Of a stretch of 64,000 bases of DNA, positions 25,606-56,284 are shown piece by piece. Every line of letters begins with the position of its first letter. Position 1 is the stretch's first letter. The stretch is taken from NCBI GenBank assembly GCA_016186395.1, contig JACPLU010000003.1, forward strand, positions 76,289-140,288. The letters are read 5' to 3'. Position numbers and translations under genes: made by a program. Below the pieces are notes generated by a model. The model had not been told where the DNA came from and did no database searches. It saw only the letters and a program-made list of their open reading frames with translations. The DNA is from Parcubacteria group bacterium (GTDB lineage: Bacteria; Patescibacteriota; Minisyncoccia; 2-02-FULL-40-12).

Positions 25606-26766
25606 ATGAAAAGTCTTATTATTGTAGTTTTAGTTCTCTTGGGCTTAGGTACTGGTGTTTATTTACTCTCAACTTCTAAAACCAGTACTACTGTTACACC
25701 GGAAGCCACAATCTCTAATAATGACGGGTCAGGTTTATCTGATCTTATTGTTTTAGCATCAGAAGTTTTTATTAAGAACCCGGGAGATGCAGATTTTGTA
25801 AGGATTGAAAAGCAGGCCAAAATTAAAGAGGGTAGCGAGATTAAAACTTCTTCAACTGGCCGTGCTACTGTTCGTTTCCCAAATGGAACAATTTCTAATC
25901 TTACAAGGGATACCAGTATAATTTTAAAAGAACTTTCTACTGATGGTAATAAATCAAGAATTCAGATTTTAGCCGGTGGCATATGGTCAAAGATAGAAAA
26001 TATTTTAGGAAAAGGTGACGTGTATGAAATTGAGACAGAAAATATGGTGGCTTCGGTTAGGGGGACAATTTTTGCTTCTAAACTTATTGATCACATTTCC
26101 TCTATTTACGTGCTTGAGAATAAAGTTGGAGTAAAAGTTAAAAATCCAAAAACGAATGAAATACTTGAAGACGTTTTTAATTTTATTCAAGTTGAAGAAG
26201 GCGAAAAAACTTCAGTTAATACAAATAAACTTCCCACTAAAGCCAATCCCCTTAAAAAATCTTTAATTACAAAAGATGATCTTGATCAGGAATTGATTAA
26301 AGAAAATTTGGGAGGAGAATATCTTGAACGCGAGTCAATTCAAAAACTTTTTTTGAAATTAATTCAGGCCATAAGTCCAAATCCAACATCATCAAATAAC
26401 ACACTTAAGCCTTTAACCAGTTCCAGTGTTACCAGTTCACCATCTTCGGTCTTAATTCAGCCAGTTTCTACTCCAACCCCCACCCCCACCCCTGTTCCTA
26501 AGCCAGAGTCAACCATAGAGTCGGTTACCCCTGACATGATTGAGGCGTCAAGCGCTAGTGGGGCGGAGCTTGCCGTAAACGGCAGTAATCTTTTTGGGAC
26601 AAAAAAAGTTTTGTTAAATCAAATCAGTCTTGATTTTTTTGTTGTTGATACTTCTACAATTTTTGCTTCTCTGCCGGAAAATGTTGAGCCTGGCGTTTAT
26701 GATGTTTCAATTGTAACTTCTTCCAATAAAACATTAACTCTAAATCAAGCCCTCCAGGTTAGATGA
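25606..26766 (+). CDS. secreted/membrane-anchored FecR-like domain protein with Pro/Thr linker
   Basis: Signal/TM at the N-terminus. FecR-like beta region (ATVRFPNGTISNLTRDTSIILKEL). PTPTPTPVP linker. Confidence 0.5.
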   Translation: MKSLIIVVLVLLGLGTGVYLLSTSKTSTTVTPEATISNNDGSGLSDLIVLASEVFIKNPGDADFVRIEKQAKIKEGSEIKTSSTGRATVRFPNGTISNLTRDTSIILKELSTDGNKSRIQILAGGIWSKIENILGKGDVYEIETENMVASVRGTIFASKLIDHISSIYVLENKVGVKVKNPKTNEILEDVFNFIQVEEGEKTSVNTNKLPTKANPLKKSLITKDDLDQELIKENLGGEYLERESIQKLFLKLIQAISPNPTSSNNTLKPLTSSSVTSSPSSVLIQPVSTPTPTPTPVPKPESTIESVTPDMIEASSASGAELAVNGSNLFGTKKVLLNQISLDFFVVDTSTIFASLPENVEPGVYDVSIVTSSNKTLTLNQALQVR

Positions 26767-28709
26767 AATTAAAAAACAAAAAGCCAGCTTTTTTGATTGG
26801 ACTTTTTGTTGCGATATTGCTTAGCGCCATGTTTTTGGCAGGATTTTTGATGCCTTGGAGGGAAAAGTTGATTGATCTTTTATTTTCTAAACAAATGCCG
26901 CCGGATAACATTGTTCTTTTGGCGATAGACGATGAAAGTATCAGTAAAATTGGTCAATGGCCGTGGCCTCGTAAAGTTTTCGGAGAAATAATTCAAAAGC
27001 TGGGTTCAGCAGCGGTTATAGGTATAGATGTAAATTTTAAAGAACCGTCTTCTTTGGGCATTGAAGATGATTTAATTTTTTCTGAATCTTTAAAAAAGGC
27101 TTCAAAGTCTGTGGTTTTGTCTGCTCCTATAAATCAGGAAGGTGATATTGGTTATCCTATTAAGTTGCTAGCGGACGTTACCAGACAAGGATTTACAAAT
27201 ATTGATACTAGTTACGATGGCATAGCCAGAAGATTCAGGTTGAATATAAATAATTTAGACAGTTTTGCGTTTCAAGTTCATAAGTTATACGAAGAAAAGA
27301 TAAATAATACAGTACCAAGATTTTCTCAAGAAATGATACGCATTAAATATTATGGTTCTTCTGGTACATTTCAATCATTTTCTTTTTACGATATTTATAA
27401 AGATAAATTACCTGTTGAACTTTCAGAAGACATTTTTAAAGATAGAATCGTTTTAATTGGTGCAACAGCTCCGGATTTACACGATTATCATCAAACTCCG
27501 ATTGGAACTTTAAGCGGGGTTGAATTGCAGGCAAATGCAATTTCTACTCTAATTGAAGGAGCTATTTTTAGAACCAACAAACCGTTAGATTTATTTTTAA
27601 TAATATTTCTAGCTTTTCTTACTGTAACTTTAAGTTTTTATATTAAAAAGTTTTTTTCTTTAATTTTAAGTATTTTGGTTCTTCTAATAATCTTTAACTC
27701 GGCTATATTCCTATTGTTTGACGCATTTTTAATTGTTGATCTTCTTTATCCAAACGTTGCAATTATTTTGACTTTAGCGATTAGCGTGGTTTATCAGTAC
27801 TTTTCGACCAGAAAAGAAAAAAAACTTATTCAAGACTCTTTTTCTCGCTATCTTTCGCCGGTAGTTATAGACCAGATTCTTGAAGATCCGAGTAAATTAC
27901 GTTTAGGGGGTGAAAAAAGAGAATTAACTATTTTATTTTCGGATATCAGGAATTTTACAACTATTTCGGAATCTATGGATCCGGAGAGATTAACTCATTT
28001 TTTGAATCGTTATTTAACCGCAATGACGGAAATAGTTTTAGAAAATAACGGCTTGATAGATAAATATATTGGAGATGCAATCATGGCTTTTTGGGGCGCG
28101 CCTCTTTCAGACAAAGATCATATTTTAAATGCTCTTTTAACAGCAAAGAGAATGATTGATAAGCTGGAAGAGTTTAATCGTCAGAGTAAAGAAAAAAATG
28201 AACCAGAGATTCAAATAGGAATAGGAATTAATTCTGGACTTGCGACGGTCGGTAACTTGGGATCGGAAAACCGTTTTGACTATACGGCTATAGGGGATAG
28301 TGTAAATCTGGCTTCCCGATTGGAGGGATTAAATAAATTTTATGGAACTTCAATTATTGTAAGCGGAGCAACTTTTCAAGTTATTAGTCAGGTTCAAAAA
28401 ACAAATCACCGTTTACTATTTAGAGAAATTGATACCGTAAAAGTGAAAGGGAAAAAAGAAGCGATTAAAATTTTTGAGTTGATACCGGAAGCTAAACAAG
28501 AAAAAACGATTTCCATTATTAGTATTTTTGAAGCTGGTCTGAACTTTTATTATGAAGGTAGATGGCAGGAAGCAGTAGAAAACTTTAATCGTGTTTTAAA
28601 TAATCTTTCCGATGATGAACCGTCAATATTGCTTAAACAAAGATGTGAAGAATTTAGCAATAACCAACCTCAAAATTGGCAAGGGGTATTTGAACTGACA
28701 AATAAATAG
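26763..28709 (+). CDS. CHASE2-sensor class III adenylate/guanylate cyclase
   Basis: CHASE2 N-terminal domain (IVLLAIDDESISKIGQWPWPR). TM block. Cyclase core LTILFSDIRNFTTISE...IGDAIMAFWGAP...AIGDSVNLASRLE. Confidence 0.8.
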   Translation: MKLKNKKPAFLIGLFVAILLSAMFLAGFLMPWREKLIDLLFSKQMPPDNIVLLAIDDESISKIGQWPWPRKVFGEIIQKLGSAAVIGIDVNFKEPSSLGIEDDLIFSESLKKASKSVVLSAPINQEGDIGYPIKLLADVTRQGFTNIDTSYDGIARRFRLNINNLDSFAFQVHKLYEEKINNTVPRFSQEMIRIKYYGSSGTFQSFSFYDIYKDKLPVELSEDIFKDRIVLIGATAPDLHDYHQTPIGTLSGVELQANAISTLIEGAIFRTNKPLDLFLIIFLAFLTVTLSFYIKKFFSLILSILVLLIIFNSAIFLLFDAFLIVDLLYPNVAIILTLAISVVYQYFSTRKEKKLIQDSFSRYLSPVVIDQILEDPSKLRLGGEKRELTILFSDIRNFTTISESMDPERLTHFLNRYLTAMTEIVLENNGLIDKYIGDAIMAFWGAPLSDKDHILNALLTAKRMIDKLEEFNRQSKEKNEPEIQIGIGINSGLATVGNLGSENRFDYTAIGDSVNLASRLEGLNKFYGTSIIVSGATFQVISQVQKTNHRLLFREIDTVKVKGKKEAIKIFELIPEAKQEKTISIISIFEAGLNFYYEGRWQEAVENFNRVLNNLSDDEPSILLKQRCEEFSNNQPQNWQGVFELTNK

Positions 28710-28766
28710 CTTAGCTTAAGATATGGGTGGTCTTTTTAGTATCTCAAGTCGGAGTTATTTGATTGT

Positions 28767-28899
28767 GCTTGGCTTCTATGCATATTCGGCACGCAATTTT
28801 TCTCCAGCGTGAAAAATTGTTAAGTGAGAGTTTACTTTTCGCCTTTGGCGAACCATGCAAAGTAAACTCTCAATTACCTTATATGCATAGTAGCCAAGC
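28767..28899. repeat. structured repeat family C copy 1 (nested hairpins)
   Basis: Outer stem GCTTGGCTTCTATGCATAT/ATATGCATAGTAGCCAAGC. Inner stem GTGAGAGTTTACTTT/AAAGTAAACTCTCAA. Conserved core TTCGCCTTTGGCGAACCATGCA. Confidence 0.7.
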
Positions 28900-28984
28900 G
28901 CAGTTACTATTTGCGTTGACAGAATACCTCTAATCTGTTAATCTTTTATCGTTCCTTACAAATAGATTCTAATAGGAGGCCCGC

Positions 28985-29554
28985 GTGCGATCAGATGACG
29001 ATAAACTCGGGGTTTTGGTTTGCGGTTATGGGACGGATCTAACAGCTAATGGGTATTATTTATACTTTATCTTGTTTGAACTGATAAAGTTATCCAAACA
29101 ACACAAAGAAATAGTGGTTATTGCGAGTGGCGGGGAAACAAATAAAAAGTCTAGACCCGGTAAAACCGAAGCCGACATGATAGCAGATTATCTGGATAAA
29201 AATTTAGTATATCATGGGATAAATAATGTAAAGATTCTTAGAGAAAGAATTGCTTATACAATAAGGCAGAATCTGGAAGAATCTTCTCATGGTTTTAAAT
29301 TTGAATTTAGAATGCGGCATTTGCCAAGAAATATCGTTGTAATTTGTAAACAGAGTCATGTTCTGAAGGTGAAATTATTATCAAGTGCACTGTGGGGATT
29401 TATACCTAGGATAATTCATTTTGAGGAAAGGCTTAACTTTAAGGAGACTATAAAACAAAAGATTGCCGCATTTTTATCTTTAGCCGGAGTTTGGATACCC
29501 CCGATAGCCAATATGGAATTGGAACGAAAAGAAAGAATTATTAACGAATCATAA
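28985..29554 (+). CDS. DUF218 (YdcF/ElyC-like) domain protein
   Basis: GTG start; IVVIASGGETN core. Confidence 0.5.
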   Translation: MRSDDDKLGVLVCGYGTDLTANGYYLYFILFELIKLSKQHKEIVVIASGGETNKKSRPGKTEADMIADYLDKNLVYHGINNVKILRERIAYTIRQNLEESSHGFKFEFRMRHLPRNIVVICKQSHVLKVKLLSSALWGFIPRIIHFEERLNFKETIKQKIAAFLSLAGVWIPPIANMELERKERIINES

Positions 29555-29567
29555 AAAGGAGGAATTT

Positions 29568-30650
29568 ATGCAAGAACAAGTTTTAAGAGAAGGACTAGAA
29601 ATACTACAAAAAGATTCTGGATTTAGAACTAATAATCAGCCAGCTTATTTGGTTAAATCCGGTCCTGACAACTATAGAGCTTTGATACAAGATGGTTTTT
29701 GCAATGGACCCGAAGGCACGGAATTGTGTATAAAGTTATATTTAAGTTGCAATGAGTTAGAGGGAATAAATTTTACTGAAGTAGCTAAACAACATAGATT
29801 TTATAACCAATCTATTAGTCCCGTTAGTTACAAAGATTTAGTGGTCAGGTATCCGATTGTGTATAACGACGGTATTATGGTTAGACGTGATGTAATGTTT
29901 ACCTGGATGATAGAGCAAAGAATACCAGAAGGTTTAAGGCTGTTGCTTAATTATCCGGATTCCACTTTGGAAGAAAAAGTTCGGGTTGCAAAAGTTTATT
30001 GGCACACGGCGGTAAACTTTCCTCAAGTTTTTGAAACAGACCCTAGCGAGGCAACTACTGCCCAGGGTTATTTTATGGGGAAACTTAGAGAGTGGACTAA
30101 AATTGGAGAATATATAGCGCCCGAAGTTACAAAAAGAAGAGGTATGGTTCAAAAAGGAATTTTAAATAATATTGAAAGCCTGCCAATGTTTTGGTTCTTT
30201 AGATTGTTTCAAAATACCGACATAATTTTAGCTGACAACCGTGGTTATATGCTTGATTTTTACCCAGCACTTAAGCCAAAATACTTTGGAATTGCATGTT
30301 GGCTATGGGGCTGGTCGCTTTTTTGGTCAGTCAATAACAAGCTTAATCAACTCGGTATTTTGAACGAATGGGAATTGGAATTTGATAGTTGGATAAATAT
30401 CTTTTTTGGAGTTCAATTAGAGATAGCTAGAATAAGTACTGGGAATTTGCCGGTTTTTGAGGAAAATTATTTTAGATTCAGAAGGTTAATTTGGGCTAAT
30501 TTTTTGGAAAGAGTCTATGCTACCTTATGTGTTGATTTGCCGCTTAGGCGTTCACCATTTAATGATATAAATGATGATCAGGTTCGGAGTGTTCAAGAGT
30601 TTTGGCTTTCTATATTAAATAATGTTCTATTCAAATTGGGAGTTTCATAA
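29568..30650 (+). CDS. hypothetical protein
   Basis: 360-aa ORF with SD AGGAGG; no domain recognised. Confidence 0.45.
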   Translation: MQEQVLREGLEILQKDSGFRTNNQPAYLVKSGPDNYRALIQDGFCNGPEGTELCIKLYLSCNELEGINFTEVAKQHRFYNQSISPVSYKDLVVRYPIVYNDGIMVRRDVMFTWMIEQRIPEGLRLLLNYPDSTLEEKVRVAKVYWHTAVNFPQVFETDPSEATTAQGYFMGKLREWTKIGEYIAPEVTKRRGMVQKGILNNIESLPMFWFFRLFQNTDIILADNRGYMLDFYPALKPKYFGIACWLWGWSLFWSVNNKLNQLGILNEWELEFDSWINIFFGVQLEIARISTGNLPVFEENYFRFRRLIWANFLERVYATLCVDLPLRRSPFNDINDDQVRSVQEFWLSILNNVLFKLGVS

Positions 30651-30723
30651 TTAAGATTGTAGAATAAAGTCAGAATAGTAATTGTGCATAAACTGTTTAT
30701 CACTTGTTGGTTTCAAATAGTCT

Positions 30724-30747
30724 ATCGGCTTAAATGGCCGATTTTTT
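30724..30747 (+). terminator. intrinsic terminator upstream of the mraZ operon
   Basis: ATCGGC-TTAAATG-GCCGAT followed by TTTTTT. Confidence 0.65.
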
Positions 30748-30875
30748 GTTTATCTAAAAAAAGTGTTGCGTAGAGTACGCTAAGTGGTATAGAATAACAC
30801 TGTGGTGGTAAGAAGTGGATGTATTTGTGGATAACTAAGTAAAAAAGTTGATAAATCCCAAATAGAAAATGACAA

Positions 30876-31310
30876 ATGTTAATAGGAGAATTTATTCATT
30901 CTATAGATGTAAAGAAAAGGTTGGCCATACCTGCTCGTTTGAGAAAAGAAATAGGAGAGCGGTCTTTTTTAACAAAAGGATTAGACAAATGTTTGTTTTT
31001 GCATCCAGCTAAAGAATGGGAAGGGTTTACGGATAAACTTACTTCTTTATCTGTTGGTCAATCCGATACCAGGAGTTTGGTGAGACAATTTTTAGCGGGA
31101 GCAGTAGAAGTAGAATTTGATGGCTTGGGAAGAATTTTGATTCCTGACTATTTAAAAGAATTTGCCGAGTTGAAAAAGAATATAGCGATAGTCGGCGTGC
31201 TGAACAGATTAGAGATTTGGGATTTAGATAATTGGAATAAATACAAAATTAATGCTGACAAAAATGCAGAAATGATCGCAGAAAAATTAGGAGAATTAGG
31301 ACTCATATAA
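30876..31310 (+). CDS. mraZ: transcriptional regulator MraZ
   Basis: Duplicated SpoVT/AbrB-like halves (FIHSIDVKKRLAIPARLR; GRILIPDYL). First gene of the dcw cluster. Confidence 0.85.
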   Translation: MLIGEFIHSIDVKKRLAIPARLRKEIGERSFLTKGLDKCLFLHPAKEWEGFTDKLTSLSVGQSDTRSLVRQFLAGAVEVEFDGLGRILIPDYLKEFAELKKNIAIVGVLNRLEIWDLDNWNKYKINADKNAEMIAEKLGELGLI

Positions 31311-31394
31311 ATCAAAAGTAAAAACACAAAATGCAAAATTACAAATTAAAATTTAAAATTTTGGATTTTGAACTGAAATTTTGATTTTTGATTT

Positions 31395-32306
31395 TTGAAT
31401 TCTGAATTTATTCATAGGCCGGTTCTTTTGGAAGAAGTAATAAAATTTTTAGATTTAAGAGAGGGCGATAAAGTAATTGATGCAACTGTTAATGGTGGCG
31501 GTCACGCAAAAAAGATTTTGGAGATAGTCGGAGATTCGGGAAGCTTACTTGGAATTGAATTAGATTCGGAACTTTATAATTTAGCCAAAATGTCATTTCC
31601 GCAAAGTCATAATTCACGAATTAAACTTGTAAATGATAATTTTGCAGAAATTGATCGGATAGCTGAAGAAAATGGTTTTAATGAAGTAAATGGAATATTG
31701 TTTGACTTTGGAGTTTCGAGTTTTCATTTTGATCAATCAGGCAGGGGATTTACTTTTCAGAAGGACGAGCCTCTGGATATGAGAATTACAAGTAATGGAT
31801 TTTTGTCGGCCAAAGAGATAGTTAATACTTATAGCGAGGAGGAGTTATATAAAATTTTAAAGGATTACGGAGAAGAAAGATTTGCTAAAAGTATATCTGG
31901 AAATATTGTTCAACAAAGGAAAAATAAGTTAATAGAGTCAACCAAAGAATTATCGGCGCTTATTGAAAAATCAGTACCAGATTGGTATAGGCATCAAAAA
32001 ATTAATCCGGCAACTAAAACCTTTCAAGCATTAAGAATTGCGGTAAATCAAGAATTAAAGAATATAGAACAAGGGCTTAAGGGTGCAATAAGGATTTTGG
32101 TTCGAGGAGGAAGGATTATAGCGATTTCTTTTCATGGCCTTGAAGATAAGATTGTAAAAAAAAAATTTAAGGAATGGGAGAAAGAAGGTTTAGGAAAAGT
32201 TTTAACAAAAAAACCAATAGTGCCTTCATCAGATGAGATTTTGATAAATGTGCGTTCCCGAAGCGCAAAAATGAGGGTTTTTCAGAAGATTTCTATACTT
32301 GCATAG
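31395..32306 (+). CDS. rsmH: 16S rRNA m4C1402 methyltransferase RsmH
   Basis: TTG start; HRPVLLEEV; SAM-binding GGGHA; FDFGVSSFHFD. Confidence 0.9.
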   Translation: MNSEFIHRPVLLEEVIKFLDLREGDKVIDATVNGGGHAKKILEIVGDSGSLLGIELDSELYNLAKMSFPQSHNSRIKLVNDNFAEIDRIAEENGFNEVNGILFDFGVSSFHFDQSGRGFTFQKDEPLDMRITSNGFLSAKEIVNTYSEEELYKILKDYGEERFAKSISGNIVQQRKNKLIESTKELSALIEKSVPDWYRHQKINPATKTFQALRIAVNQELKNIEQGLKGAIRILVRGGRIIAISFHGLEDKIVKKKFKEWEKEGLGKVLTKKPIVPSSDEILINVRSRSAKMRVFQKISILA

Positions 32307-32311
32307 TATTC

Positions 32312-32713
32312 GTGGCAAGAATGCGGCTGCGATACTCTTTGTCGGTTAAATTTATTCTACTAGCTCGGTCACCAAAATATCAACCAAAGTTAATCTCAAA
32401 AGAGAGGAGTTTTGTTTTAGAAAGTCAATCTCTCGGACTTTTTAACCTTTTGCTTCTGGGAGTTTTAATAGTTAGTGTTTTATATTTTGTTGTTCAATCG
32501 AATTTAGTTGCATCTAAAAAACTTTTATTACAAAATTTAAATCAATCTATGGAGGGAATCTATGTGGATAATATTTTTAAGCACCCTTTGATAAGCGGAA
32601 ATATTCAAGAGTTAAAATCTGCTTTAAATATGATAGATGTGGATATTTTACACTCTATAACTTTAGATCCAAACGCTTTTGCTTTGGGATCTACTGAAAA
32701 TCTAACCAGGTAG
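32312..32713 (+). CDS. FtsL-like small bitopic division protein
   Basis: Single TM, located between rsmH and ftsI. Confidence 0.4.
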   Translation: MARMRLRYSLSVKFILLARSPKYQPKLISKERSFVLESQSLGLFNLLLLGVLIVSVLYFVVQSNLVASKKLLLQNLNQSMEGIYVDNIFKHPLISGNIQELKSALNMIDVDILHSITLDPNAFALGSTENLTR

Positions 32714-32794
32714 ATTCTGGTATAAATTAAATTCATATATGCTATATTCTTTTTATACCGCTTTATAGCGGGGTTTAGTTTGTAATATAACGGG

Positions 32795-34453
32795 ATGGGT
32801 AACGCAAAAAGGTTTTTTTCTTTGGGTTTTATAATTCTTGTTGCTTTTGTCTTGATAGGCTGGCGGCTTTTTCATGTTGGTTATCTTAGGCACACCTACT
32901 ATCAGGCGCTTAAAGAACAACAAATTGTTTTTCAAAATGATGCTTCTTCAAGGGGGAGTATATTGATTAAGGACTTGCCGAGCAATAATCTTATTTTATC
33001 TGCAGTTTCGGAAAAAGAATATAAAATTGAGCTTAGTAAGAAAAAACCTGTTCAGATTGATCGGGTTTTAAATTTGCTTTCTGGGATTGTAAGTTTTGAT
33101 GTAGACAGGGTTTTGAACGATTTTTTGGATTCATCGAAGAGTAAAGTTGTAATTATTGGAGGATTAAATCAAGATCAAATTTCAAAAATTCGCAGTCTTG
33201 GGTTAGATAGTTTAAATATCATTGCTTCTCCAAAACGCATATATCCGTTGGGTTCATTAGCTGCCCATGTTTTTGGTTTTTTAGGTTTTCAGGGTCAAGA
33301 TAGGGTGGGTCAATACGGGATAGAAGCTCAATATGAGGATTTACTTTCTGGTAAGAACTCGTCAAAAAATTCATCAGACCCCAGTGATAAAATTCAAAAT
33401 GCCAATTTAATTTTAACCATTGATAAAAATATACAAAGTTATGTTGAGGAGGTTATGAATGAGATCTATAAAAAATGGGAAGCATCTGGAGCAAGTGTAA
33501 TAGTTCAAGATCCAGGAAGCGGTGCCATATTAGCTATGGCTGCTACGCCGAGTTTTGATCCCAACAATTATTCAACATCACCAACCTCAAGATTTATTAA
33601 TCCGACTGTGCAGGAAGTTTTTGAACCCGGGTCATCTTTTAAACCTATTACTATGGCGGCAGGACTGGACTTGGGGGAGATAACTCCTAAGACTACATAT
33701 GTGGATCCTGGTATGGTAAGAATAGGCAGTTATACCATTACCAACTTTAACGGTAAGAACTTTGGTGTTCAAACCATGACTCAAGTTTTGGAAAAATCTT
33801 TAAATACTGGAGCGATATTTGTGGAACGTAAAATAGGTGATGAAAATTTTCTCAGTTACGTTGAACGTTTTGGTTTTGGTCGAAAAACTGGAATTGACCT
33901 TTTTGGAGAAACCTCCGGAGACATACAAAATTTATACTCAAAACGACCGGTCAACTTTGCCACTGCTGCTTTTGGTCAGGGAGTTGCTGTAACTCCGATT
34001 CAGTTAATTACCGCTTATTCAGCCATTGCTAATGGTGGTAAATTAATGAAACCCTATTTAGTTGATAAGATAATTTTTTCTGATGGGAAGGAAGAAATAG
34101 CAAAGTCATCAATAGTTGGAAGGCCCATTTCTGAAACAACTGCATTGACCCTTCAACAAATGTTAGTTTCGGCCGTAGATAATGGTTTTGATAAGGCGCG
34201 AGTTAAGGGTTATGATGTTGCAGGTAAGACTGGCACGGCCCAGATACCAGATGGTAAGGGTGGTTATTCTGATGAATTTATTCACAACTTTTTGGGGTTT
34301 GCCCCAGCGTATAATGCAAAATTTACGGTTTTGTTAAAGTTAGACCGTCCAAAGGGGATTAAATTTTCATCAGATAGCCTTTCACCGCCGTTTGCTAAGA
34401 TTTCAAGGTTTTTAGTAAATTATTTTAGCGTATCGCCGACAAGACCGAATTAA
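32795..34453 (+). CDS. ftsI: penicillin-binding protein (FtsI-type transpeptidase)
   Basis: N-terminal TM; SxxK (GSSFKP), SxN (SLN) and KTGT motifs. Confidence 0.85.
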   Translation: MGNAKRFFSLGFIILVAFVLIGWRLFHVGYLRHTYYQALKEQQIVFQNDASSRGSILIKDLPSNNLILSAVSEKEYKIELSKKKPVQIDRVLNLLSGIVSFDVDRVLNDFLDSSKSKVVIIGGLNQDQISKIRSLGLDSLNIIASPKRIYPLGSLAAHVFGFLGFQGQDRVGQYGIEAQYEDLLSGKNSSKNSSDPSDKIQNANLILTIDKNIQSYVEEVMNEIYKKWEASGASVIVQDPGSGAILAMAATPSFDPNNYSTSPTSRFINPTVQEVFEPGSSFKPITMAAGLDLGEITPKTTYVDPGMVRIGSYTITNFNGKNFGVQTMTQVLEKSLNTGAIFVERKIGDENFLSYVERFGFGRKTGIDLFGETSGDIQNLYSKRPVNFATAAFGQGVAVTPIQLITAYSAIANGGKLMKPYLVDKIIFSDGKEEIAKSSIVGRPISETTALTLQQMLVSAVDNGFDKARVKGYDVAGKTGTAQIPDGKGGYSDEFIHNFLGFAPAYNAKFTVLLKLDRPKGIKFSSDSLSPPFAKISRFLVNYFSVSPTRPN

Positions 34454-34560
34454 ATTTAAAAGTCCCACCAGAGGCGAAGACCGCCAAAGGCGGCAAAAAG
34501 TGAAATGCAAAAATTAAAGCCAAAATTTAAAATTTTTTGATTTTTGAATTCTAAATTATA

Positions 34561-34650
34561 ATTACTTGCAGAACACCGCGGCCGTAAGGCCGCGGATGAA
34601 TGCAAGCCCTGAAGTGAGTCGAGTTTGACTCGACGAACGAAAGGTAAATA
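34561..34650. repeat. hairpin repeat family B copy 1
   Basis: CCGCGGCC-GTAA-GGCCGCGG, GATGAATGCAAGCCC and GAGTCGAG...CTCGAC. It is followed (34650-34735) by three further perfect palindromes before murF. Confidence 0.6.
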
Positions 34651-34743
34651 TATAAATCAAATTTCAGCAAAAATCATTAATGTATTTTTGCTGAAATTGT
34701 ACTCGCCCGAGTACCACGGGCGTACGCCCGTGGATATCTATTT

Positions 34744-36051
34744 ATGAAGTCTATTCTAGAGTTTATACTCAAAATATTGGCTAAAGCTGTTTTAAGAAAA
34801 TATAAACCCCAAGTAGTTGGGATTACTGGTTCGGTTGGAAAAACTTCGGCTAAAGAAGCGATTTATGCAGTGTTAAAAACCAAATATAAGGTAAGACGTG
34901 GGATGGGAAACTTAAATAATTCTCTCGGTGTTCCTTTAACTATTTTAAGCGGTTACTACGAAGATTATAAAGAAGTAAGTCCATGGTTTTTTTGGCCGAA
35001 AGTTGTTTTAGGGTCTTTAAGTTTATTATTTACTAAAGCTGACTATCCAGAGATTTTGATTCTTGAGTTAGGCGCAGATCACCCTGGCGATATTGGTTAT
35101 TTAGTTAAAATGGTAAAGCCATTTATCGGAGTGGTTACGGAAATAGGAGATATTCCTGTTCATGTAGAGTTTTATTCAGGACCCAAACATTTAGCCGAAG
35201 AAAAATCAAGGTTAATTTCTAGTTTGCCGTCAAACGGTTTTGCAATATTAAATACTGATGACGATTTAGTTTTAGATATGAAGAATCAATCTAGGGCCAA
35301 GGTGATGACTTACGGATTTGGCCGATCAGCCGATATGATTATTTCGGATTTAAATTATAATCAAACCGCGAACTTAGTGGATACAGAAATGACGTTTAAA
35401 ATTTCTTATGCCGGGAGTTTTGTACCCTTTAGACTTCATGCGTTTGGTAAATCCCAGGCTTATGCCACTGTCGCCGCGGCATCTGTTGGCGTTTCTTTAG
35501 GAATGAATCTGGTTGAAGTTGCTCAAGCAATGAAAGAATTTAAACCACCCATTGGTAGATTGAACTTAATAAGGGGTATTAAAAACACAGTAATTTTAGA
35601 TGATACGTACAATGCATCACCATCGTCTATGCATTTGGCCTTAGATATTCTTGGTCAGTTGCAAGCCAAAAGAAAGGTGGCAATTTTAGCTGATATGTTG
35701 GAATTAGGTGAATATACAGAAGAGGCTCATAGAAGTACGGGAAATTTAGCAGCTGAGTCTGCTGATGTCTTAATTTGTGTTGGAAGCCGAGCAATGTTTA
35801 TTGCAGATTCCGCCGGAAATCAACTTGCCCCGAGCGTAGTTGAGGGGATGTCTAAAGAAAATATTCTTAGATTTTCGAATGTTGGTGAAGCCTTAAAGCA
35901 AATAGACGGGTTAATAAAAGAAGGGGACTTAGTTTTAGTTAAAGGTTCGCAAAGCATGAGAATGGAGAAGCTAGTAGAATCAATAATGGCTGAACCGGAA
36001 AAAGCAGGTGAATTGTTAGTAAGGCAAGGAAAGAATTGGAAAAAGCAATGA
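34744..36051 (+). CDS. murF: UDP-N-acetylmuramoyl-tripeptide--D-alanyl-D-alanine ligase MurF
   Basis: GITGSVGKTS P-loop and Mur ligase C-terminal domain. Confidence 0.85.
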   Translation: MKSILEFILKILAKAVLRKYKPQVVGITGSVGKTSAKEAIYAVLKTKYKVRRGMGNLNNSLGVPLTILSGYYEDYKEVSPWFFWPKVVLGSLSLLFTKADYPEILILELGADHPGDIGYLVKMVKPFIGVVTEIGDIPVHVEFYSGPKHLAEEKSRLISSLPSNGFAILNTDDDLVLDMKNQSRAKVMTYGFGRSADMIISDLNYNQTANLVDTEMTFKISYAGSFVPFRLHAFGKSQAYATVAAASVGVSLGMNLVEVAQAMKEFKPPIGRLNLIRGIKNTVILDDTYNASPSSMHLALDILGQLQAKRKVAILADMLELGEYTEEAHRSTGNLAAESADVLICVGSRAMFIADSAGNQLAPSVVEGMSKENILRFSNVGEALKQIDGLIKEGDLVLVKGSQSMRMEKLVESIMAEPEKAGELLVRQGKNWKKQ

Positions 36052-36057
36052 ACGGTT

Positions 36058-36184
36058 GAGTCAATGTACTTTTTAGGCACGTAATTTTTATCCAGCGATA
36101 AAAATTACTAAGTGGCATTGTAAAATTCGCCTGAGGCGAACCGTGCATTTTCCAATGCCAATTACCTAAAAAATACATTGACTC
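36058..36184. repeat. structured repeat family C copy 2
   Basis: Outer stem GAGTCAATGTACTTTTTAGG/CCTAAAAAATACATTGACTC. Inner stem GGCATTGTAAAAT/ATTTTCCAATGCC. Conserved core TTCGCCTGAGGCGAACCGTGCA. The stems differ from copy 1 but stay complementary. Confidence 0.7.
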
Positions 36185-36344
36185 AATCCTGCAAAGACAG
36201 TATGAATAGAAAATAATGCCCCTGTTGTCTCCTCCTTCGCTCAAATGATATTTGAGCTTCGGACGGACAAAGAAGTTTGGTCTAATTCCGATTTCTTTAA
36301 ATCTCTGTTGGCGCATTCGTTTCCGATTTATATAAAAATTTGTT

Positions 36345-36422
36345 GGCCTTATCGTCTAGCTTGGTCCAGGACACTTGGTTCTCATCCAAGAAACTCGGGT
36401 TCAAATCCCGATGAGGCCGCCA
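36345..36422 (+). tRNA. tRNA-Glu (anticodon CTC), CCA encoded
   Basis: Acceptor GGCCTTA/TGAGGCC, D region GTCTAGCTTGGTCCAGGAC (Glu-type), anticodon arm CTTGG-TTCTCAT-CCAAG, T arm TCGGG-TTCAAAT-CCCGA. Confidence 0.88.
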
Positions 36423-36443
36423 AATTTTTATTAATAAATCGAG
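36403..36443 (+). repeat. 41-bp direct repeat, copy 1 (tRNA-Glu 3' end plus 22 nt downstream)
   Basis: AAATCCCGATGAGGCCGCCAAATTTTTATTAATAAATCGAG, identical to 37443-37483. Confidence 0.9.
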
Positions 36444-36488
36444 AATCCACGATTGTTAGTTGCGCTTAGCACAAAACAATCGGGACTA

Positions 36489-36541
36489 GTCTGGTCTAGG
36501 ACACGACGTTCTCAACGCTGGAACACGGGTTCGATTCCCGT
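36489..36541 (+). pseudogene. tRNA-Glu-like fragment with D arm and T arm but no acceptor stem
   Basis: GTCTGGTCTAGGACAC...TTCTCAA...ACGGGTTCGATTCCCGT parallels tRNA-Glu. The anticodon stem and acceptor stem do not pair. Confidence 0.4.
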
Positions 36542-36763
36542 ATGCGTTGCGAGCGAACGAAGGTGAGTGAATACTGAGATCAGCAGATCGAAGTGCGCTC
36601 TATATTTTACTAACTAACTTTATGCAGGGCCAGGAGATATGTGAATAAAATGGTGCCTGACACCTTTTTCCAACACCTTTTTCCAACGGTGCTCTTGACT
36701 TAAAAAACCGGTTATGCTACATTAGTCAACGTAATCAGGCTTAATGCTTGATACCTATACGGC

Positions 36764-37177
36764 ATGGTGTCGTATAGAACTTGTAGATTGAAAATTAAAA
36801 AAGGAGAAACGGATATGAAAAAGACTTTCGCAGTTTTCGCTTCGACCGTCGTGCTCAGTTTCCTCGTCCCGATTATTGGTTGTTCTACACCCGTGGATTC
36901 TCAGCACCCATCCCAAAAGTGTGTAGAGGGAATAGTAGAGAGAGTAGAATATACACAGACGGAAAATGGTTTTATGAACCCAGGACATCAGAATAACCAT
37001 ATATATTTTTCTGATGGAAGATCTATTTCTCTGCCAGGGACATTGCGAGCACCAAAGGCAATAGTTGTAGGAAAATTCAATAGGATTTGGTTTGATGACA
37101 CCAGTAGCTACCGTAACCACACCCCTTGGATAAGAGATGTCGAAATACTTCAACAGCCTGAGACAAATTCGAAGTAG
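36764..37177 (+). CDS. predicted lipoprotein
   Basis: Signal peptide with lipobox PIIGC; SD AAGGAG. Confidence 0.5.
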   Translation: MVSYRTCRLKIKKGETDMKKTFAVFASTVVLSFLVPIIGCSTPVDSQHPSQKCVEGIVERVEYTQTENGFMNPGHQNNHIYFSDGRSISLPGTLRAPKAIVVGKFNRIWFDDTSSYRNHTPWIRDVEILQQPETNSK

Positions 37178-37442
37178 CGCGAGCCATAGCTTGCTCATCA
37201 GCGCCTTGCGGAATTCGTGAACAACGAATCAATCCGCAAGGCGCTTTCTTTTTCTCAAATCTCAAAGAACAAACTTTGCGAAAACAAATGCTTTCAGCTG
37301 TTCTTTATTTGTATTTGTTTTCGCAACAACGGCGAAATGCGCTCGAACTATTTTAAGTATTCTGCGCAAAATATGTATAAATTATTGTGCTGGGTCATCC
37401 AAGATTGAGTTCTCCGCCAAAGGCGGATCATCCTCAGGCTGA

Positions 37443-37483
37443 AAATCCCGATGAGGCCGCCAAATTTTTATTAATAAATCGAG
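37443..37483 (+). repeat. 41-bp direct repeat, copy 2 (att-like)
   Basis: Identical to 36403-36443, about 1 kb downstream. Confidence 0.9.
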
Positions 37484-37507
37484 GGTTCTAAGTATCAGTC
37501 GTCTTTG

Positions 37508-37942
37508 CTACTTTTTTTGATTTAAATTTTTGACATTAGCTTTTAGGAACGCCTGGATATGATTTAAAATTGGTTCTTTTTTATGCGGTCTGCTTCCAGC
37601 GATATGCTTGGCGAATCTATAAAGTCTATCATTGCTAATATAAATCCATGACCCGTTCTTATACAGAAAGTATAGTAAACACATGATAGCAATTCTTTTA
37701 TTTCCATTTTGAAATGGGTGGTTTTTTATTAAAAGATAAAATAAAACACTCCCTTTGCCAATAAGACCTCTATAGAAATCTGTTTTATCAAAACTTGCAA
37801 AAGGGACGGCAAGACAACTTTCAAGTATATTAGGGAATCTTGAACCAAAATTGGGAATAGGTTCATTCCATGTCATTAACTTTTCTGCTAAACGGAAGGC
37901 TGTGTATTCTACCTCGGCAATTGTTAGTTGTTTTGGTCTCAT
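37508..37942 (-). CDS. Doc/Fic-family toxin
   Basis: HPFQNGNKR matches the Doc-type Fic motif HxFx(D/N)GNKR. Confidence 0.75.
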   Translation of the reverse strand: MRPKQLTIAEVEYTAFRLAEKLMTWNEPIPNFGSRFPNILESCLAVPFASFDKTDFYRGLIGKGSVLFYLLIKNHPFQNGNKRIAIMCLLYFLYKNGSWIYISNDRLYRFAKHIAGSRPHKKEPILNHIQAFLKANVKNLNQKK

Positions 37943-38193
37943 TCCTTTCCAAGTAATTTAAAAACTTCACCATAGTCTGCAATGGCTTTATTGAGGGCTT
38001 TTTCAATATTATCTTTTTTTTCTTGACCAATTGATTTTCCCAAAGCTTCTAATAGATTTTCGTGGCTGACTATATAGTTTCTTCCAACCTTCTCGGCTTT
38101 TAGTTTCCCTTTTTTGATACGGTTGAATACCCCCACTCTGCTTATATGTAATATATGTGCTACTTCAGTTGTAGAATAGTATTTTTTTGTCAT
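37939..38193 (-). CDS. HTH (excisionase/MerR-like) DNA-binding protein, putative antitoxin/regulator of the Doc gene
   Basis: TTEVAHILHISRVGVFNRIKKGKL helix-turn-helix. Its stop overlaps the Doc start by 4 nt. Confidence 0.6.
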   Translation of the reverse strand: MTKKYYSTTEVAHILHISRVGVFNRIKKGKLKAEKVGRNYIVSHENLLEALGKSIGQEKKDNIEKALNKAIADYGEVFKLLGKE

Positions 38194-38225
38194 ATTCGTA
38201 TGTTAACATATGTTAACATACGAAT
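38194..38225. promoter_or_regulatory. 32-bp perfect palindrome (putative operator) abutting the HTH gene start
   Basis: ATTCGTATGTTAACATATGTTAACATACGAAT is its own reverse complement. It lies immediately 5' of the ATG at 38193. Confidence 0.6.
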
Positions 38226-38264
38226 AAAGTCCATTTTCTATAGTGACACAGGGCTTTCTGTTTT

Positions 38265-38526
38265 TATTATTTCTTGTAGAATACCCCGCGGTTTGCCCCG
38301 TCACCAGACCCAGCACAGCAATGCCAGAATGTTTTGGGTTTAAGTGCACTTCAGTCCGTAGAGTACACTTACTTTAGTAAGAACCGTTCTAATAAAGCAT
38401 TGGTACAGAAAACCAGTGCTGGGCTCGGTGCGGGGCTTGCCACGGAGATGAATGTAAGCCCGAAGCGAAGCCAAGTCAGACTTGGCGAAGCGGAGGAAAT
38501 AACATAAATCCAGCAATTTTTGAAAT
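38265..38526. repeat. hairpin repeat family B copy 2, with a long internal stem insertion
   Basis: Shares the 5' end TATTATTTCTTGTAGAATACCCCGCGG and the 3' end GATGAATGTAAGCCCGAAGCGAAG...GCGGAGGAAATAACATAAATCCAGCAATTTTTGAAA with copy 3. Confidence 0.65.
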
Positions 38527-38683
38527 ATTTAAAAAATACTAATTCTTTTCAAAAATTGCGTAGGGTACTCTTTTTAAGAGTACCTCACAGCTTGCTGTGA
38601 GGATTTCTATTAATTTGTTTTGATATGCTGATTTTCTTCTCTTTCAAACATGCAGGGTGGAGTAAATAAAAAGCCCTTGTGGG

Positions 38684-38890
38684 CTAAAAAAATCTTATTT
38701 TAGAACGAAGAGTATCCCAAGCTTTACTTTTAGACATTCTAAGACGTTTCCTTTCTTTTTCTAACTCATCGCGGTTTTCTGCCAAAAGCACTAGAAGATT
38801 CCAGGCTCTCCACTTAGGCATATTGTGGGTTTTTCTAATTTTTTCTAAGCTGGGATATCCAGTTTTTATTAAAACCTTTTTCCTGGGCAT
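38684..38890 (-). CDS. hypothetical small basic protein
   Basis: ORF only. Confidence 0.3.
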   Translation of the reverse strand: MPRKKVLIKTGYPSLEKIRKTHNMPKWRAWNLLVLLAENRDELEKERKRLRMSKSKAWDTLRSKIRFF

Positions 38891-39106
38891 TTTATTCTCC
38901 TAGTAAGTTTATGATGTGCTGTTAATAAAATTATTCCTATGGCAAATTAATGTCAAACCCTGCCGTTGATCCCGCTCTTAAGTTTAAGGGCTGGGTTGAG
39001 CTCAAGGGTGGAGGCAAACAATATAAAATATGATTGACAGTTGGAGTACTCTATGCTAAGTTGTTTTTACTTAGGTTTTGTCATTTAACAAAAAGGGGGA
39101 ATAAAA

Positions 39107-39232
39107 ATGTGGATTAAGATTAATTGGAGTACTGTATTCTTGGATTTTTTTGGAGTACTCGCCTGTATTTTTATTCTATTATCATCTGTTTTTTCCCACA
39201 GAATATGCAGTCGAACTGGGAAGAGTAAATAA
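39107..39232 (+). CDS. candidate 41-aa hydrophobic peptide; not in the ORF track
   Basis: SD AAGGGGG 8 nt upstream. MWIKINWSTVFLDFFGVLACIFILLSSVFSHRICSRTGKSK. The stop lies 3 nt before the next start. Confidence 0.3.
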   Translation: MWIKINWSTVFLDFFGVLACIFILLSSVFSHRICSRTGKSK

Positions 39233-39235
39233 AAT

Positions 39236-39652
39236 ATGCGAGTTTTTCTAGTTCGACATGGAGATGCTAGGGGCAGTTTAACAGAAAATGGAAGAATGCA
39301 AATTTCAGCAACAGCTAACTTTTTGGAGTCATTAAAACTAGATCCTTTGAAAACTGTATTACTTACATCTGAACGTCAAATGGCAGTTGAGACCGCGGAA
39401 ATCATTCGAGAAAGGTTTGGGTTTAATAATTGTTTACAAAAATCTTGGTTAACGTGTGGAACAGATGAACATACTAAATTTTGTTTGGAAAATTTCATCA
39501 GAGATAATCCTCAATTTGAGACGGTTATCTGTGTGAGTCATGAACCAGAACTTGAAGAAGTTCTTCGAGCGCTTGGATTTTATAAGACTGTTCCCAAGGG
39601 TTCTGTACATGAGATTCAGCTTAGTACCGGAACCGCATCGCGTCTCTATTAA
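39236..39652 (+). CDS. sixA: histidine phosphatase superfamily (SixA-like phosphohistidine phosphatase)
   Basis: MRVFLVRHGDA (RHG motif) and a downstream SHEPE segment. Confidence 0.65.
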   Translation: MRVFLVRHGDARGSLTENGRMQISATANFLESLKLDPLKTVLLTSERQMAVETAEIIRERFGFNNCLQKSWLTCGTDEHTKFCLENFIRDNPQFETVICVSHEPELEEVLRALGFYKTVPKGSVHEIQLSTGTASRLY

Positions 39653-39778
39653 TCACGCTGGTCATTTCGGCCAGTTTTTTTGTTTACCAAAAGTTTTTGT
39701 ATCTTTACAAATTGTTTGATATCTATTACATTTTTTTCACTATTTTTACTATTGGCAAAGAGTACAAAGTGATGTATT

Positions 39779-40093
39779 TTGCCAATAAAGATCTTTTCCA
39801 ATACGGAGCTAAAGATGGAAAAAATAGTTTGTAATCGAGCCAAACATCCGGGTCATCCGCTAGAAAATATCGAGGCTAGATACAGAACTGTAACAAGATA
39901 TGGTAAAGAGCAACTTTGCGAAAAATGCGCTACTCCGATGTTGATAGCAAGGCAGATGCTCATAAACGATTTTAACGACGGGGCATTGTTGTCGATCGTA
40001 GATTTGAGTAATAATCTGGATATTTTAAAAGAGCTGGTTAAAAATAATGCTAAAAATGGCCTATTACACCAGAGCACTGATGAAGATATTTGA
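39779..40093 (+). CDS. hypothetical protein
   Basis: ORF only. Confidence 0.35.
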   Translation: MPIKIFSNTELKMEKIVCNRAKHPGHPLENIEARYRTVTRYGKEQLCEKCATPMLIARQMLINDFNDGALLSIVDLSNNLDILKELVKNNAKNGLLHQSTDEDI

Positions 40094-40158
40094 TGCTGTT
40101 TTAATTGAAAGTACGCGCCTATTGCGCGTTTTTTAAATTTTAGGTAGTATTTCCAGTA

Positions 40159-40476
40159 ATGCATTTTGCTATAATTCTAACTGGTGGCAAACAATATTTA
40201 GTAAAAGAAGGGGATTTACTTAAAGTTGAGAAATTAAACCCAAAAGAGGGTGAGGATTTAGTATTTGATAAAGTTCTTCTTTTTTCAGATGGTGAAGCCG
40301 TTAAATTAGGCAAACCATATTTGGAAGGGGCATCTGTTAGGGCCAGTATTTTAGAGCAGGGAAAGGATAAAAAGAAGATTGTTTTTAGGTTTAAGTCAAA
40401 GACTCGTTATAAAAAGAAAAAAGGCCATAGACAGCCTTTCACAAAAGTTAAGATTGAGAAAATAATCTTTGGCTAA
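40159..40476 (+). CDS. rplU: 50S ribosomal protein L21
   Basis: [23 protein letters not shown]...; L21 family. Confidence 0.9.
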
Positions 40477-40480
40477 TTTT

Positions 40481-40616
40481 TATTATTTCTTGCAGAATAC
40501 CCCGCGGCCTGTCTGCCGATAGGCAGGCTTGCCGTGGGGATGAATGCAAGCCCGAAGCAAAGTCGAGCTTAGCTCGACGAAGCGGAGGAAATAACATAAA
40601 TCCAGCAATTTTTGAA
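40481..40616. repeat. hairpin repeat family B copy 3
   Basis: TATTATTTCTTGCAGAATACCCCGCGGCC..., GATGAATGCAAGCCCGAAGC, AGTCGAGCTTAGCTCGAC, GCGGAGGAAATAACATAAATCCAGCAATTTTTGAAA. Confidence 0.65.
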
Positions 40617-40647: not shown

Positions 40648-40806
40648 GCTTGCTGAATAATACTCTTTCTCTTTCTTCGCAAACCCCAGCGTGGTTTGCT
40701 CAGGGGTTGAGTCTTTCGCTCTTACCCGGCTCTTTCAAAAGAAAGAGCCGGGTAAACCATGCCCGCTACAGGCTCAAAACCCGTTCAAGAGTATTATTTC
40801 AGCAAG
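40648..40806. repeat. MITE-like element family E copy 1 with ~19-bp terminal inverted repeats
   Basis: Begins CTTGCTGAATAATACTCTT and ends AAGAGTATTATTTCAGCAAG. Internal hairpins CGCAAACCCC/GGTTTGC and ACCCGGCTCTTTC-AAAA-GAAAGAGCCGGGT. Confidence 0.7.
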
Positions 40807-40817: not shown

Positions 40818-41429
40818 TTAGTTTCTTCTTTCCAACGCATCTTTCAACGTTATTTCGTCAACATATTCCAAAGATGTACCAAAGGATATGCCTCTACCTA
40901 AACGAGTAATTTGAATTTGATCTTGAAGTTTTTTTAATTTGTCCTCGATGTATATGGCAGTGGTGTTGCCAAAAGGCGTGGGGCTTAGTGCCAGAATGAT
41001 TTCCGGTTTTTTATTCTTTTGACTTAGAATATTTTTAATTCTTTGGTTAAGTTGACTGATTGTTAATCTCTCGGCATTTATACCGTCTATAGGATTTATT
41101 GCTCCTCCCAATACGTGATAGTGGCCCTGGTAATGTCCGGTTCTCTCAACTGATTCCAGGTCGCTAATCTTTTCTACAACCATAATTTTAGAAGCGTCTC
41201 TTTTGGGATTTAAGCATATATAACAGCGGTCAGTTTCCCCAACATAAAAACATTGGGTGCAAAGTTTAATTTCTTGTTTCAGGTTGGCAATTAATCTTGC
41301 AAATTCAACAAGTTCCGTTTCGTCGCGGTTTAAAAGCGATAAAACAAAACGGGTCGCTTGACGTGGCCCCACCCCGGGTAAAATCGTAAAAAGTTTTTTT
41401 AGCTTTGTGAAAGATTTCATACGATGCAA
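40818..41429 (-). CDS. recR: recombination protein RecR
   Basis: HhH N-terminus, C4 zinc finger (CTQCFYVGETDRCYIC) and Toprim domain. Confidence 0.9.
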   Translation of the reverse strand: MHRMKSFTKLKKLFTILPGVGPRQATRFVLSLLNRDETELVEFARLIANLKQEIKLCTQCFYVGETDRCYICLNPKRDASKIMVVEKISDLESVERTGHYQGHYHVLGGAINPIDGINAERLTISQLNQRIKNILSQKNKKPEIILALSPTPFGNTTAIYIEDKLKKLQDQIQITRLGRGISFGTSLEYVDEITLKDALERRN

Positions 41430-45229: not shown

Positions 45230-45366
45230 GTACTCGGAATTCAGAGTGCAAGGGGGTGGAGCTCACGGGCTCCACCAAACCCGCATTGTGGCGGAAAGCC
45301 ACAGTGTGATTCCAGCCCGGCGTAGACCGGTGACTGGGGGGTGGTGCTCCGGCGCCACCCTTTTTC
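45230..45366 (+). ncRNA. candidate ~135-nt small RNA (promoter-to-terminator unit U1)
   Basis: Starts about 7 nt after the -10 box. Hairpins GGTGGAGC-TCACG-GGCTCCACC and GTGGC-GGAAA-GCCAC. 3' module CCAGCCCGGCGTAGACCGGTGACTGGGGGG. Terminator GGTGGTGC-TCC-GGCGCCACC followed by CTTTTTCC. Confidence 0.45.
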
Positions 45367-46459: not shown

Positions 46460-46595
46460 TAGTCTCGGGTCAGGTCAAAAACCGAGTTTTAAAAAGGGAC
46501 GAAGCTTAAGCTTGACCAAGCAATAGTCCCAACCATCATCCAGCCCGGCGTAGACCGGTGTCTGGGGGCCAGTGCTCTTGCGCTGGCCTTTTTCG
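46460..46595 (+). ncRNA. candidate ~135-nt small RNA (unit U3, paralog of U1)
   Basis: CTCGGGTCAGGTCAAAAACCGAG hairpin and AAGCTTAAGCTT palindrome. Same 3' module CCAGCCCGGCGTAGACCGGTGTCTGGGGG. Terminator GCCAGTGC-TCTT-GCGCTGGC followed by CTTTTTCG. Confidence 0.45.
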
Positions 46596-46669
46596 TTTAA
46601 ATAGCTTTTACTGTTGATGATTGGATATTTATATTTATGCTATACTCTAAATTATTGAAACTTCGTATT

Positions 46670-46805: not shown

Positions 46806-46828
46806 AATATTTAATCCAGAGCCTACTT

Positions 46829-47647: not shown

Positions 47648-47658
47648 TCTTTAGAAAG

Positions 47659-47784: not shown

Positions 47785-47791
47785 CTAGATT

Positions 47792-56273: not shown

Positions 56274-56284
56274 ATAAGCTTACT

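Follow-up and report, generated by a model that had tools for sequence, protein, structure and literature searches.

The stretch of DNA analysed here (64 kb from a Parcubacteria-group bacterium, referred to below as the window) contains a family of non-coding, intergenic elements, about 105–190 nucleotides (nt) long, in which a long outer stem closes a three-way junction. Copy 1 follows an open reading frame (ORF) for a CHASE2/cyclase protein (26763–28709), the stop codon of which lies 55 nt before the element. Copy 2 follows a Mur-ligase (murF) ORF (34744–36051) that ends 4 nt before it, and is located upstream of a tRNA-Glu gene. The location of both copies on the plus strand and the identity of the two upstream genes agree with the original prediction; the boundaries given in Table 1 include the full outer stems. 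The conserved blocks quoted in that prediction occur exactly twice in the window, compared to 0.00–0.01 occurrences expected from shuffled sequences. Both copies fold into nested hairpins, with energies of −61.1 kcal/mol for copy 1 (z = −9.6 relative to dinucleotide shuffles) and −51.1 kcal/mol for copy 2 (z = −10.8). They have identical unpaired nucleotides and differing self-complementary stems: the outer stem P1 and the long hairpin P3 are almost wholly different between the copies and are paired within each. This complementarity had been called perfect, but it is only near-perfect, with a T·T mismatch and a 2×2 internal loop in P1 of copy 1, and a C·A mismatch in P1 and a U·C mismatch in P3 of copy 2. 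The repeat family itself is real, but its membership is larger than the two copies originally proposed, as the window holds at least seven.

The P1 stem is usually 15–30 bp long and is variable in sequence. The junction segment J1/2 is short, usually (C)AC and CAC in copies 1 and 2, and P2 is a hairpin with the loop (U)CCAGCG. P3 begins with UAA-G and closes with A-UUA in copies 1 and 2, and carries a small inner hairpin, P3a (TTCGCC/GGCGAA in the same two copies), followed by a 7-nt 3′ bulge with the sequence CCAWGCA family-wide and CCRTGCA in copies 1 and 2. The unpaired positions of the consensus are AC in J1/2, CCAGCG, CCAWGCA and a bulged A, and these nucleotides are shown to be conserved and strand-specific. 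The termini are the most variable part of the element across the family and the interior is conserved. The apparent conservation of P2 in metagenomic matches is an ascertainment artefact, since the search pattern fixed its sequence; in 15 model matches outside that pattern the P2 stems are wholly different, but the CCAGCG loop is retained. Alternative P2 stems are GTGTGC/GCACAC, GCATC/GATGC, GCAAACC/GGTTTGC and TTCTGT/ACAGAA, and a GC-rich subfamily retains a 3×3 internal loop. Mutual information revealed no convincing pairs beyond those of the model. Copies 1 and 2 suggested a GCACG/CGTGC pseudoknot joining J1/2 to the bulge, which was rejected because the partner is absent in two further family members (L041 and L042, described below) and in other subfamilies. 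The stems are also not guides to other sites in the window, as the arms match solely their own partner or the sister copy.

Two covariance models were built with Infernal, R1 from six hand-annotated sequences and R2 from the 94 matches of R1. An alignment of 36 members with MAFFT and RNAalifold did not recover the structure, whereas the hand-annotated six-sequence seed followed by realignment with Infernal did. The models match six of the window copies (Table 1); the seventh (copy 7) was missed by both and was detected via the P1 arm that it shares with the copy at 40.6 kb (copy 6). The orientations of the copies are reliable because the reverse strand scores about 80 bits lower (17 vs 94 bits). 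For the same reason, and because A·C and G·U are both rare, we rejected the idea that the minus strand is the functional one, at which C·A mismatches in two stems had hinted. The seven copies cover about 1.0 kb of the 64 kb and occupy roughly one in ten intergenic spacers.

A scan of groundwater and sediment metagenomes for the P2 hairpin yielded at least 120 loci. Among the matches listed, 96 of 125 fold into the same junction, and covariance-model matches in the metagenomic loci number at least 94–106 per search. A scan of a genome collection for the three unpaired blocks added L041 and L042, two further members in one metagenome-assembled genome (MAG), which covary in P3a and in the pairs that close P1; a third match (L040) was discarded as a chance match. 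The collection of homologues with a covariance model, as proposed with the original prediction, brought together six window copies and their metagenomic relatives, and the support for covariation is strong. None of 2.9 million viral contigs matches the P2 pattern, and an association with phages was rejected on this ground. The MAG with L041 and L042 (CAYZYP01) is labelled "uncultured Gammaproteobacteria", probably wrongly, because its purA product is 68% identical to Magasanikbacteria/Patescibacteria proteins and matches no named gammaproteobacterium. The contig bears purA-purM-purC/E-purB, a set that is unusual for bacteria of the Candidate Phyla Radiation (CPR, Patescibacteria). With the label set aside, spread of the element outside the CPR is rejected. 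As the window host is a Parcubacteria-group bacterium and the MAG with L041 and L042 is Patescibacteria-like, all traceable members belong to CPR bacteria (Parcubacteria and Magasanikbacteria-like).

At gathering thresholds, Rfam 15 finds only tRNAs in the whole window. Permissive Rfam 15 scans of copy 1, of the 40–57 kb region and of one metagenomic member gave only weak matches to generic-hairpin microRNA models, the best scores being 16–27 bits compared to cut-offs of 52–195. The element is therefore not a known RNA family, every ribozyme class in Rfam and the HEARO/IS605 RNAs included. No description of such elements was found in the literature searched, and the family is previously uncatalogued. 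In one metagenomic member (L043, 8462–8526; also in L048 and L056) the 3′ foot of P1, AAAGCATATCAGCTCGC, is directly repeated about 48 nt downstream as AAAGCATATTGGCTCGC, and a CTCGC motif stands on both sides of several members of the L043 subfamily. A CRISPR-like or tandem array beside copies of this type was considered and rejected.

Covariation was assessed in a model-based alignment of 73 distinct family members, with many of the metagenomic ones being close relatives. Standard pairs occupy 89.6% of cells compared to 63.5% in column shuffles and 42–58% when the partners are slid, although fitting to the model inflates pairing somewhat, and double-sided changes are found in 43 of the 44 modelled pairs. 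Close orthologues display a mirrored 1-bp indel and mirrored substitutions, and at low divergence there are five compensated changes vs 19 single ones. The clearest comparison is with a relative (L163) whose murF protein is 85% identical and which has an element at the same position between murF and tRNA-Glu. All unpaired blocks and P3a of this element are identical to those of the window copy, and P1, P2 and P3 have been rewritten yet are paired. The surrounding spacer is unalignable except directly upstream of the tRNA gene, where the promoter of that gene presumably lies. The retention of the unpaired blocks in rewritten stems, together with the covariation statistics, indicates that selection, or a process equivalent to it, keeps the stems paired.

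The original prediction took this covariation as the mark of a selected RNA structure. The first half of the claim stands, as pairing is kept beyond what chance or recent copying would give; the RNA identity does not follow, given the lack of G·U excess and the mixed orientation of the copies. Covariation shows selection for intrastrand pairing and does not specify the type of strand, so that it does not by itself separate an RNA function from a folded-DNA function. P1, P2 and P3a together contain 23 G·U (1.2%) and 42 A·C (2.2%) among 1935 cells. In tRNA stems of the same DNA, 31 of 534 pairs (5.8%) are G·U, a comparison limited to G·U because mismatches are not marked as pairs in the ARAGORN output. 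Since G·U is no commoner than A·C, pairing in the element is Watson-Crick only and strand-symmetric, as one would expect if the fold forms in DNA, or if arm-to-arm templated correction preserves the palindrome.

The element has been copied as a whole. Copies 5 and 3 are 84% identical overall, 19 bp of P1 included, with most of their differences at the tip of P3a. The ORF between them encodes an unrelated membrane protein, and a tandem duplication of gene plus element was rejected because the flanked and neighbouring ORFs are unrelated. Copies 6 and 7 are 76% identical; what separates them is a hairpin insertion of 31 nt and a G-C pair that has become A-T by compensated change. Both sister pairs have unrelated neighbouring genes. 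In one metagenomic subfamily, conserved inverted termini (TCTGNCAGAATTATTTTT...; TCTGNCAGAATTATTTTTAAAAAG... and its complement) are found at many unrelated loci. At one locus (L072) an element lies between the rplI start codon and the stop codon of the neighbouring gene; in two loci with flanks 91–92% identical to it (L118 and L129) the same place is taken by a 10-nt spacer in which neither arm has left a trace. Between more diverged loci there are two further filled/empty pairs (L096 vs L126 and L062 vs L148). No target-site duplication is visible at the L072/L118 pair or in the flanks of copies 3, 5, 6 and 7, where the flanking bases tend to extend the palindrome. These comparisons show that the whole hairpin, P1 included, is the unit duplicated, gained or lost. 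The assertion that the pattern is not what a MITE (miniature inverted-repeat transposable element) produces is not supported, given the two recently copied pairs at unrelated loci, and is weakened further by the subfamily termini conserved at many loci and by the filled/empty orthologous sites.

The context of the element was classified for 83 non-redundant loci with simple ORF calls. Among loci with a gene on both sides, the element is in the sense orientation in 22 (++), between convergent genes in nine (+-), between divergent genes in eight (-+) and antisense in seven (--). The neighbours are unrelated housekeeping genes (e.g. murF, def-fmt, rplI, purA/purM), and no neighbouring protein family recurs beyond orthologous loci. 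Orientation is not set by replication, because the GC skew is positive across the window and four copies lie on the plus strand and three on the minus strand. There is no U-tract after P1, and no whole element is among the terminator-like calls of the window; a single such call falls inside an element, on a 5-bp hairpin that forms the tip of P3a in copy 4 (53455–53468), and not on P1. Canonical intrinsic terminators are found elsewhere, e.g. two similar hairpins at 45336–45363 and 46564–46591 (GGGGG..GCTC..GC..CCTTT, then a T run); the organism has ordinary terminators distinct from the element.

Table 1. Copies of the element in the window, with their parts and settings. Positions are those of the window; P1 entries give the length and pairing of the outer stem.
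Feature	Position	Strand	Model match	Score or P1	Sequence parts and setting
Copy 1	28764-28902	+	28780-28886 (+)	R1 106.7 bits, E 2.8e-28	
Copy 1, P1 arms	28764-28785 / 28881-28902				
Copy 1, P2 loop	28804-28809				CCAGCG
Copy 1, P3a hairpin and 3′ bulge	within 28838-28859	+			bulge CCATGCA
Copy 2	36056-36186	+	36068-36174 (+)	R1 107.2 bits, E 2e-28	
Copy 2, P1 arms	36056-36077 / 36165-36186				
Copy 2, J1/2	36078-36080				CAC
Copy 2, P2	36081-36108				
Copy 2, P2 loop	36092-36097				CCAGCG
Copy 2, P3	36109-36164				inner hairpin TTCGCC-TGA-GGCGAA
Copy 2, bulge	36141-36147				CCGTGCA
Copy 6	40649-40806	+	40662-40792 (+)	R2 30.4 bits, E 1.4e-6	divergent subfamily; P2 GCAAACC/GGTTTGC, loop CCAGCG; bulge ACCATGC; J1/2 long, pyrimidine-rich; abuts 3′ end of minus-strand ORF 40818-41429
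Copy 5	46666-46809	-	46678-46797 (-)	P1 24 nt, 96% complementary	P2 GTGTGC/GCACAC, loop TCCTGCG; bulge CCAAGCA; antisense to flanking plus-strand ORFs, between a terminator-like/promoter-like pair and ORF 46829-47647
Copy 3	47657-47786	-	47667-47776 (-)	P1 22 bp, perfectly paired	sister of copy 5; antisense, between ORFs 46829-47647 and 47792-48385
Copy 4	53397-53527	-	53406-53518 (-)	P1 19 bp, perfectly paired	P2 GCATC/GATGC with 3×3 internal loop, loop TCCAGCG; bulge CCTATCA; divergent spacer between def (52888-53337, -) and a DUF4012 gene (53577-56273, +)
Copy 7	56278-56468	+			sister of copy 6; 31-nt hairpin insertion; loop CCGGCG; begins 4 nt past the stop of ORF 53577-56273

Two of these copies display local peculiarities. 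The segment of copy 7 that is inserted relative to copy 6 (56340–56375) could by eye form a small hairpin, and resembles a nested insertion or an expansion of a hairpin tip. A promoter-like match on the minus strand (TTACCA-16-TACAAT, 53391–53418) has its −35 element inside copy 4, at the boundary of J3/1 and the 3′ arm of P1, and its −10 element just outside the copy, upstream of def. Copy 4 might thus supply part of a promoter.

We give about an even chance to the reading that the element is a non-autonomous structured repeat of dynamic copy number, the single-stranded fold of which is recognised via its conserved unpaired bases. Such a repeat, selfish or semi-domesticated, would propagate in the form of a folded single strand. 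A hypothetical protein encoded elsewhere in the genome would contact it at the conserved unpaired bases, and the variable stems would need only to pair. We lean slightly to a single-stranded DNA substrate of the HUH/Y1 type, as for REP/REPIN and the ends of IS200/IS605, since the pairing is Watson-Crick only and strand-symmetric, no target duplication is seen and the copies are oriented both ways. Copies that are co-transcribed, which is the commoner orientation, may form a very stable RNA stem-loop at gene ends, and this may explain how the element can persist, without harm or with slight benefit, where genes are closely spaced.

Several observations weigh against this interpretation. Neither the neighbourhood of any copy nor the 20 ORFs scanned in the window, which is 64 kb of a 239-kb contig, yielded a transposase, recombinase or reverse transcriptase, and specifically no Y1/HUH transposase. 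It was not possible to define a conserved insertion target or a terminal cleavage motif, and the window lacks the replication-strand bias of IS608-type elements. Between co-directional genes the sense orientation is favoured by 22 to 7, which fits an RNA-level role or a transcription-dependent propagation. One junction-proximal pair (columns 121–227) alternates between U-A and U·G, the sole strand-specific signal in the pairing. At high divergence the stems turn over at approximately the neutral rate with an invariant unpaired core, which is the classical pattern of a functional RNA, and the conserved bulges, a G/A mismatch and the 3×3 internal loop are typical of RNA tertiary motifs.

The strongest rival, which we regard as less probable and yet as a serious contender, is a genuine structured RNA, either a cis-acting module of 3′ untranslated or intercistronic regions, or a small RNA cut from P1 by a double-strand-specific RNase. 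The junction would bind a protein or ligand, and the many copies would have arisen by duplication of the module, as with tRNA-like or riboswitch paralogues. Besides the U-A/U·G pair and the sense bias, it would account for the strong covariation in all helices, for unpaired nucleotides that are invariant between relatives whose neutral DNA is unalignable, and for the far lower scores of the reverse strand. The GC content of 0.43–0.51 in five copies of a genome with 36% GC, and the start of the element 0–25 nt past the stop codon in many loci, are likewise in its favour. However, G·U is not enriched over A·C in the element, which lacks the G·U share of the tRNAs in the same DNA, and a structured RNA is not easily reconciled with the seven antisense cases among 29 co-directional contexts, the eight divergent contexts and the presence/absence polymorphism between close relatives. 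Copies 5 and 3, antisense to both neighbours, leave only 15–31 nt of spare spacer for a promoter of their own. Furthermore, seven copies in 64 kb beside unrelated housekeeping genes are unlike known regulatory RNAs.

A classical cut-and-paste MITE, i.e. a deletion derivative of a DDE transposon recognised by its terminal inverted repeats and with an incidental internal structure, is improbable. It would explain the insertion polymorphism, the near-identical copies and the P1 termini conserved within subfamilies at many loci. Yet family-wide it is the termini that vary most and the interior that is conserved, the reverse of a MITE; the clean filled/empty pair and the four sister copies lack a target-site duplication, and no related full-length transposon was seen in about 0.7 Mb of loci. 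Least probable of all is a generic hairpin that serves as a terminator or mRNA 3′-end stabiliser and whose loops are conserved as a by-product of common descent: it suits the very stable stems (−47 to −80 kcal/mol) and the many copies directly after stop codons, but not the missing U-tract, the different terminators elsewhere in the window or the copies that separate operon genes or occupy a 5′ leader or a divergent promoter region; nor can common descent by itself account for an unpaired core that stays the same once divergence has reached saturation.

The element is most like REP/REPIN and other intergenic palindromic repeats. Similar to REP/REPIN (mobilised by RAYT, a Y1 HUH enzyme) and BIMEs, it is short, non-coding, extragenic and present in high copy number, folds as a palindromic single strand, occurs in both orientations between genes, has compensatory stems and leaves no target duplication. 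The enzyme that mobilises REP/REPIN acts in trans. REPs, however, are simple hairpins of 20–40 bp, unlike a three-way junction of 105–190 nt with conserved loop, bulge and junction nucleotides; their GTAG/CGTC tag is not in the element consensus, the termini of which are variable; and neither the 20 ORFs scanned in the window nor the neighbours yielded a RAYT gene. REP/REPIN families are known mainly from Proteobacteria, unlike the element family, found in CPR bacteria. ERIC/IRU, Correia (CREE), RUP and BOX elements are also imperfect palindromes, are 100–200 bp long, are co-transcribed, form long stem-loops, vary by internal insertions and are present or absent between strains. These are conserved along their length, inverted termini included, whereas in the element only unpaired positions are fixed. 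Correia elements also duplicate TA, unlike the element at the sites compared.

Integron attC sites and IS200/IS605 ends share with the element the primacy of structure over stem sequence, Watson-Crick-only pairing, variable length and hairpin tip, and unpaired or extrahelical bases as contacts (proposed for the element). Unlike attC, the element has no conserved R′′/R′ core (RYYYAAC/GTTRRRY), integrase or cassette array, and its neighbours are housekeeping genes. Compared to IS200/IS605 it lacks a conserved tetranucleotide target, and its ends pair together, which the left and right ends of IS608-type elements do not. Multi-copy structured RNAs (tRNAs, riboswitch paralogues and repeat-linked ribozymes) resemble it in the junction, the invariant unpaired nucleotides, the covarying helices and a GC content above that of an AT-rich host genome; the element differs in having no Rfam 15 match, no G·U enrichment, mixed orientation and insertion polymorphism. 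The conserved three-way-junction core and the CPR hosts set the family apart. On this analysis the DNA and RNA readings are compatible rather than mutually exclusive; mobile DNA doubles as RNA hairpins in the case of REP, ERIC and Correia elements.

Several other features of the window were recorded. A second palindromic repeat family is present at 60875–61055 and 63309–63381 (CCCCGTAGTGAAAATTTGGAA / TTCCAAATTTCTACTACGGGG), with arms of 19–24 nt that are 83–100% complementary; several nested copies lie near 61 kb and another near 63.3 kb. The region 36200–40600 (about 4.4 kb) has no ORF longer than 147 amino acids and no Rfam match save tRNA-Glu (36345–36422), and is unusually gene-poor for so compact a genome. 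The mraZ-mraW spacer (31309–31408) contains a 54-nt AT-rich imperfect palindrome that is 74% complementary. ARAGORN calls a tRNA-Tyr at 8585–8672 that is absent from the Rfam list at gathering thresholds.

CPR genomes measure about 1 Mb, have closely packed genes and are considered to contain few repeats and regulators. It is possible, if rather doubtful, that these bacteria harbour, in this family, a mobile structured nucleic acid of a new class: either a catalytic or protein-recruiting RNA whose three-way junction, with the invariant CCAGCG loop and CCAWGCA bulge, drives its own processing or spread, or a substrate of an undescribed system of single-stranded DNA transposition that recognises a branched fold and not terminal sequences. 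That the element recurs in widely separated CPR lineages with its unpaired nucleotides unchanged implies a conserved, undescribed partner protein or catalytic fold. The family has a defined consensus, numerous natural variants and sites both filled and empty, and is a testable system that addresses the spread of structured repeats in reduced genomes.

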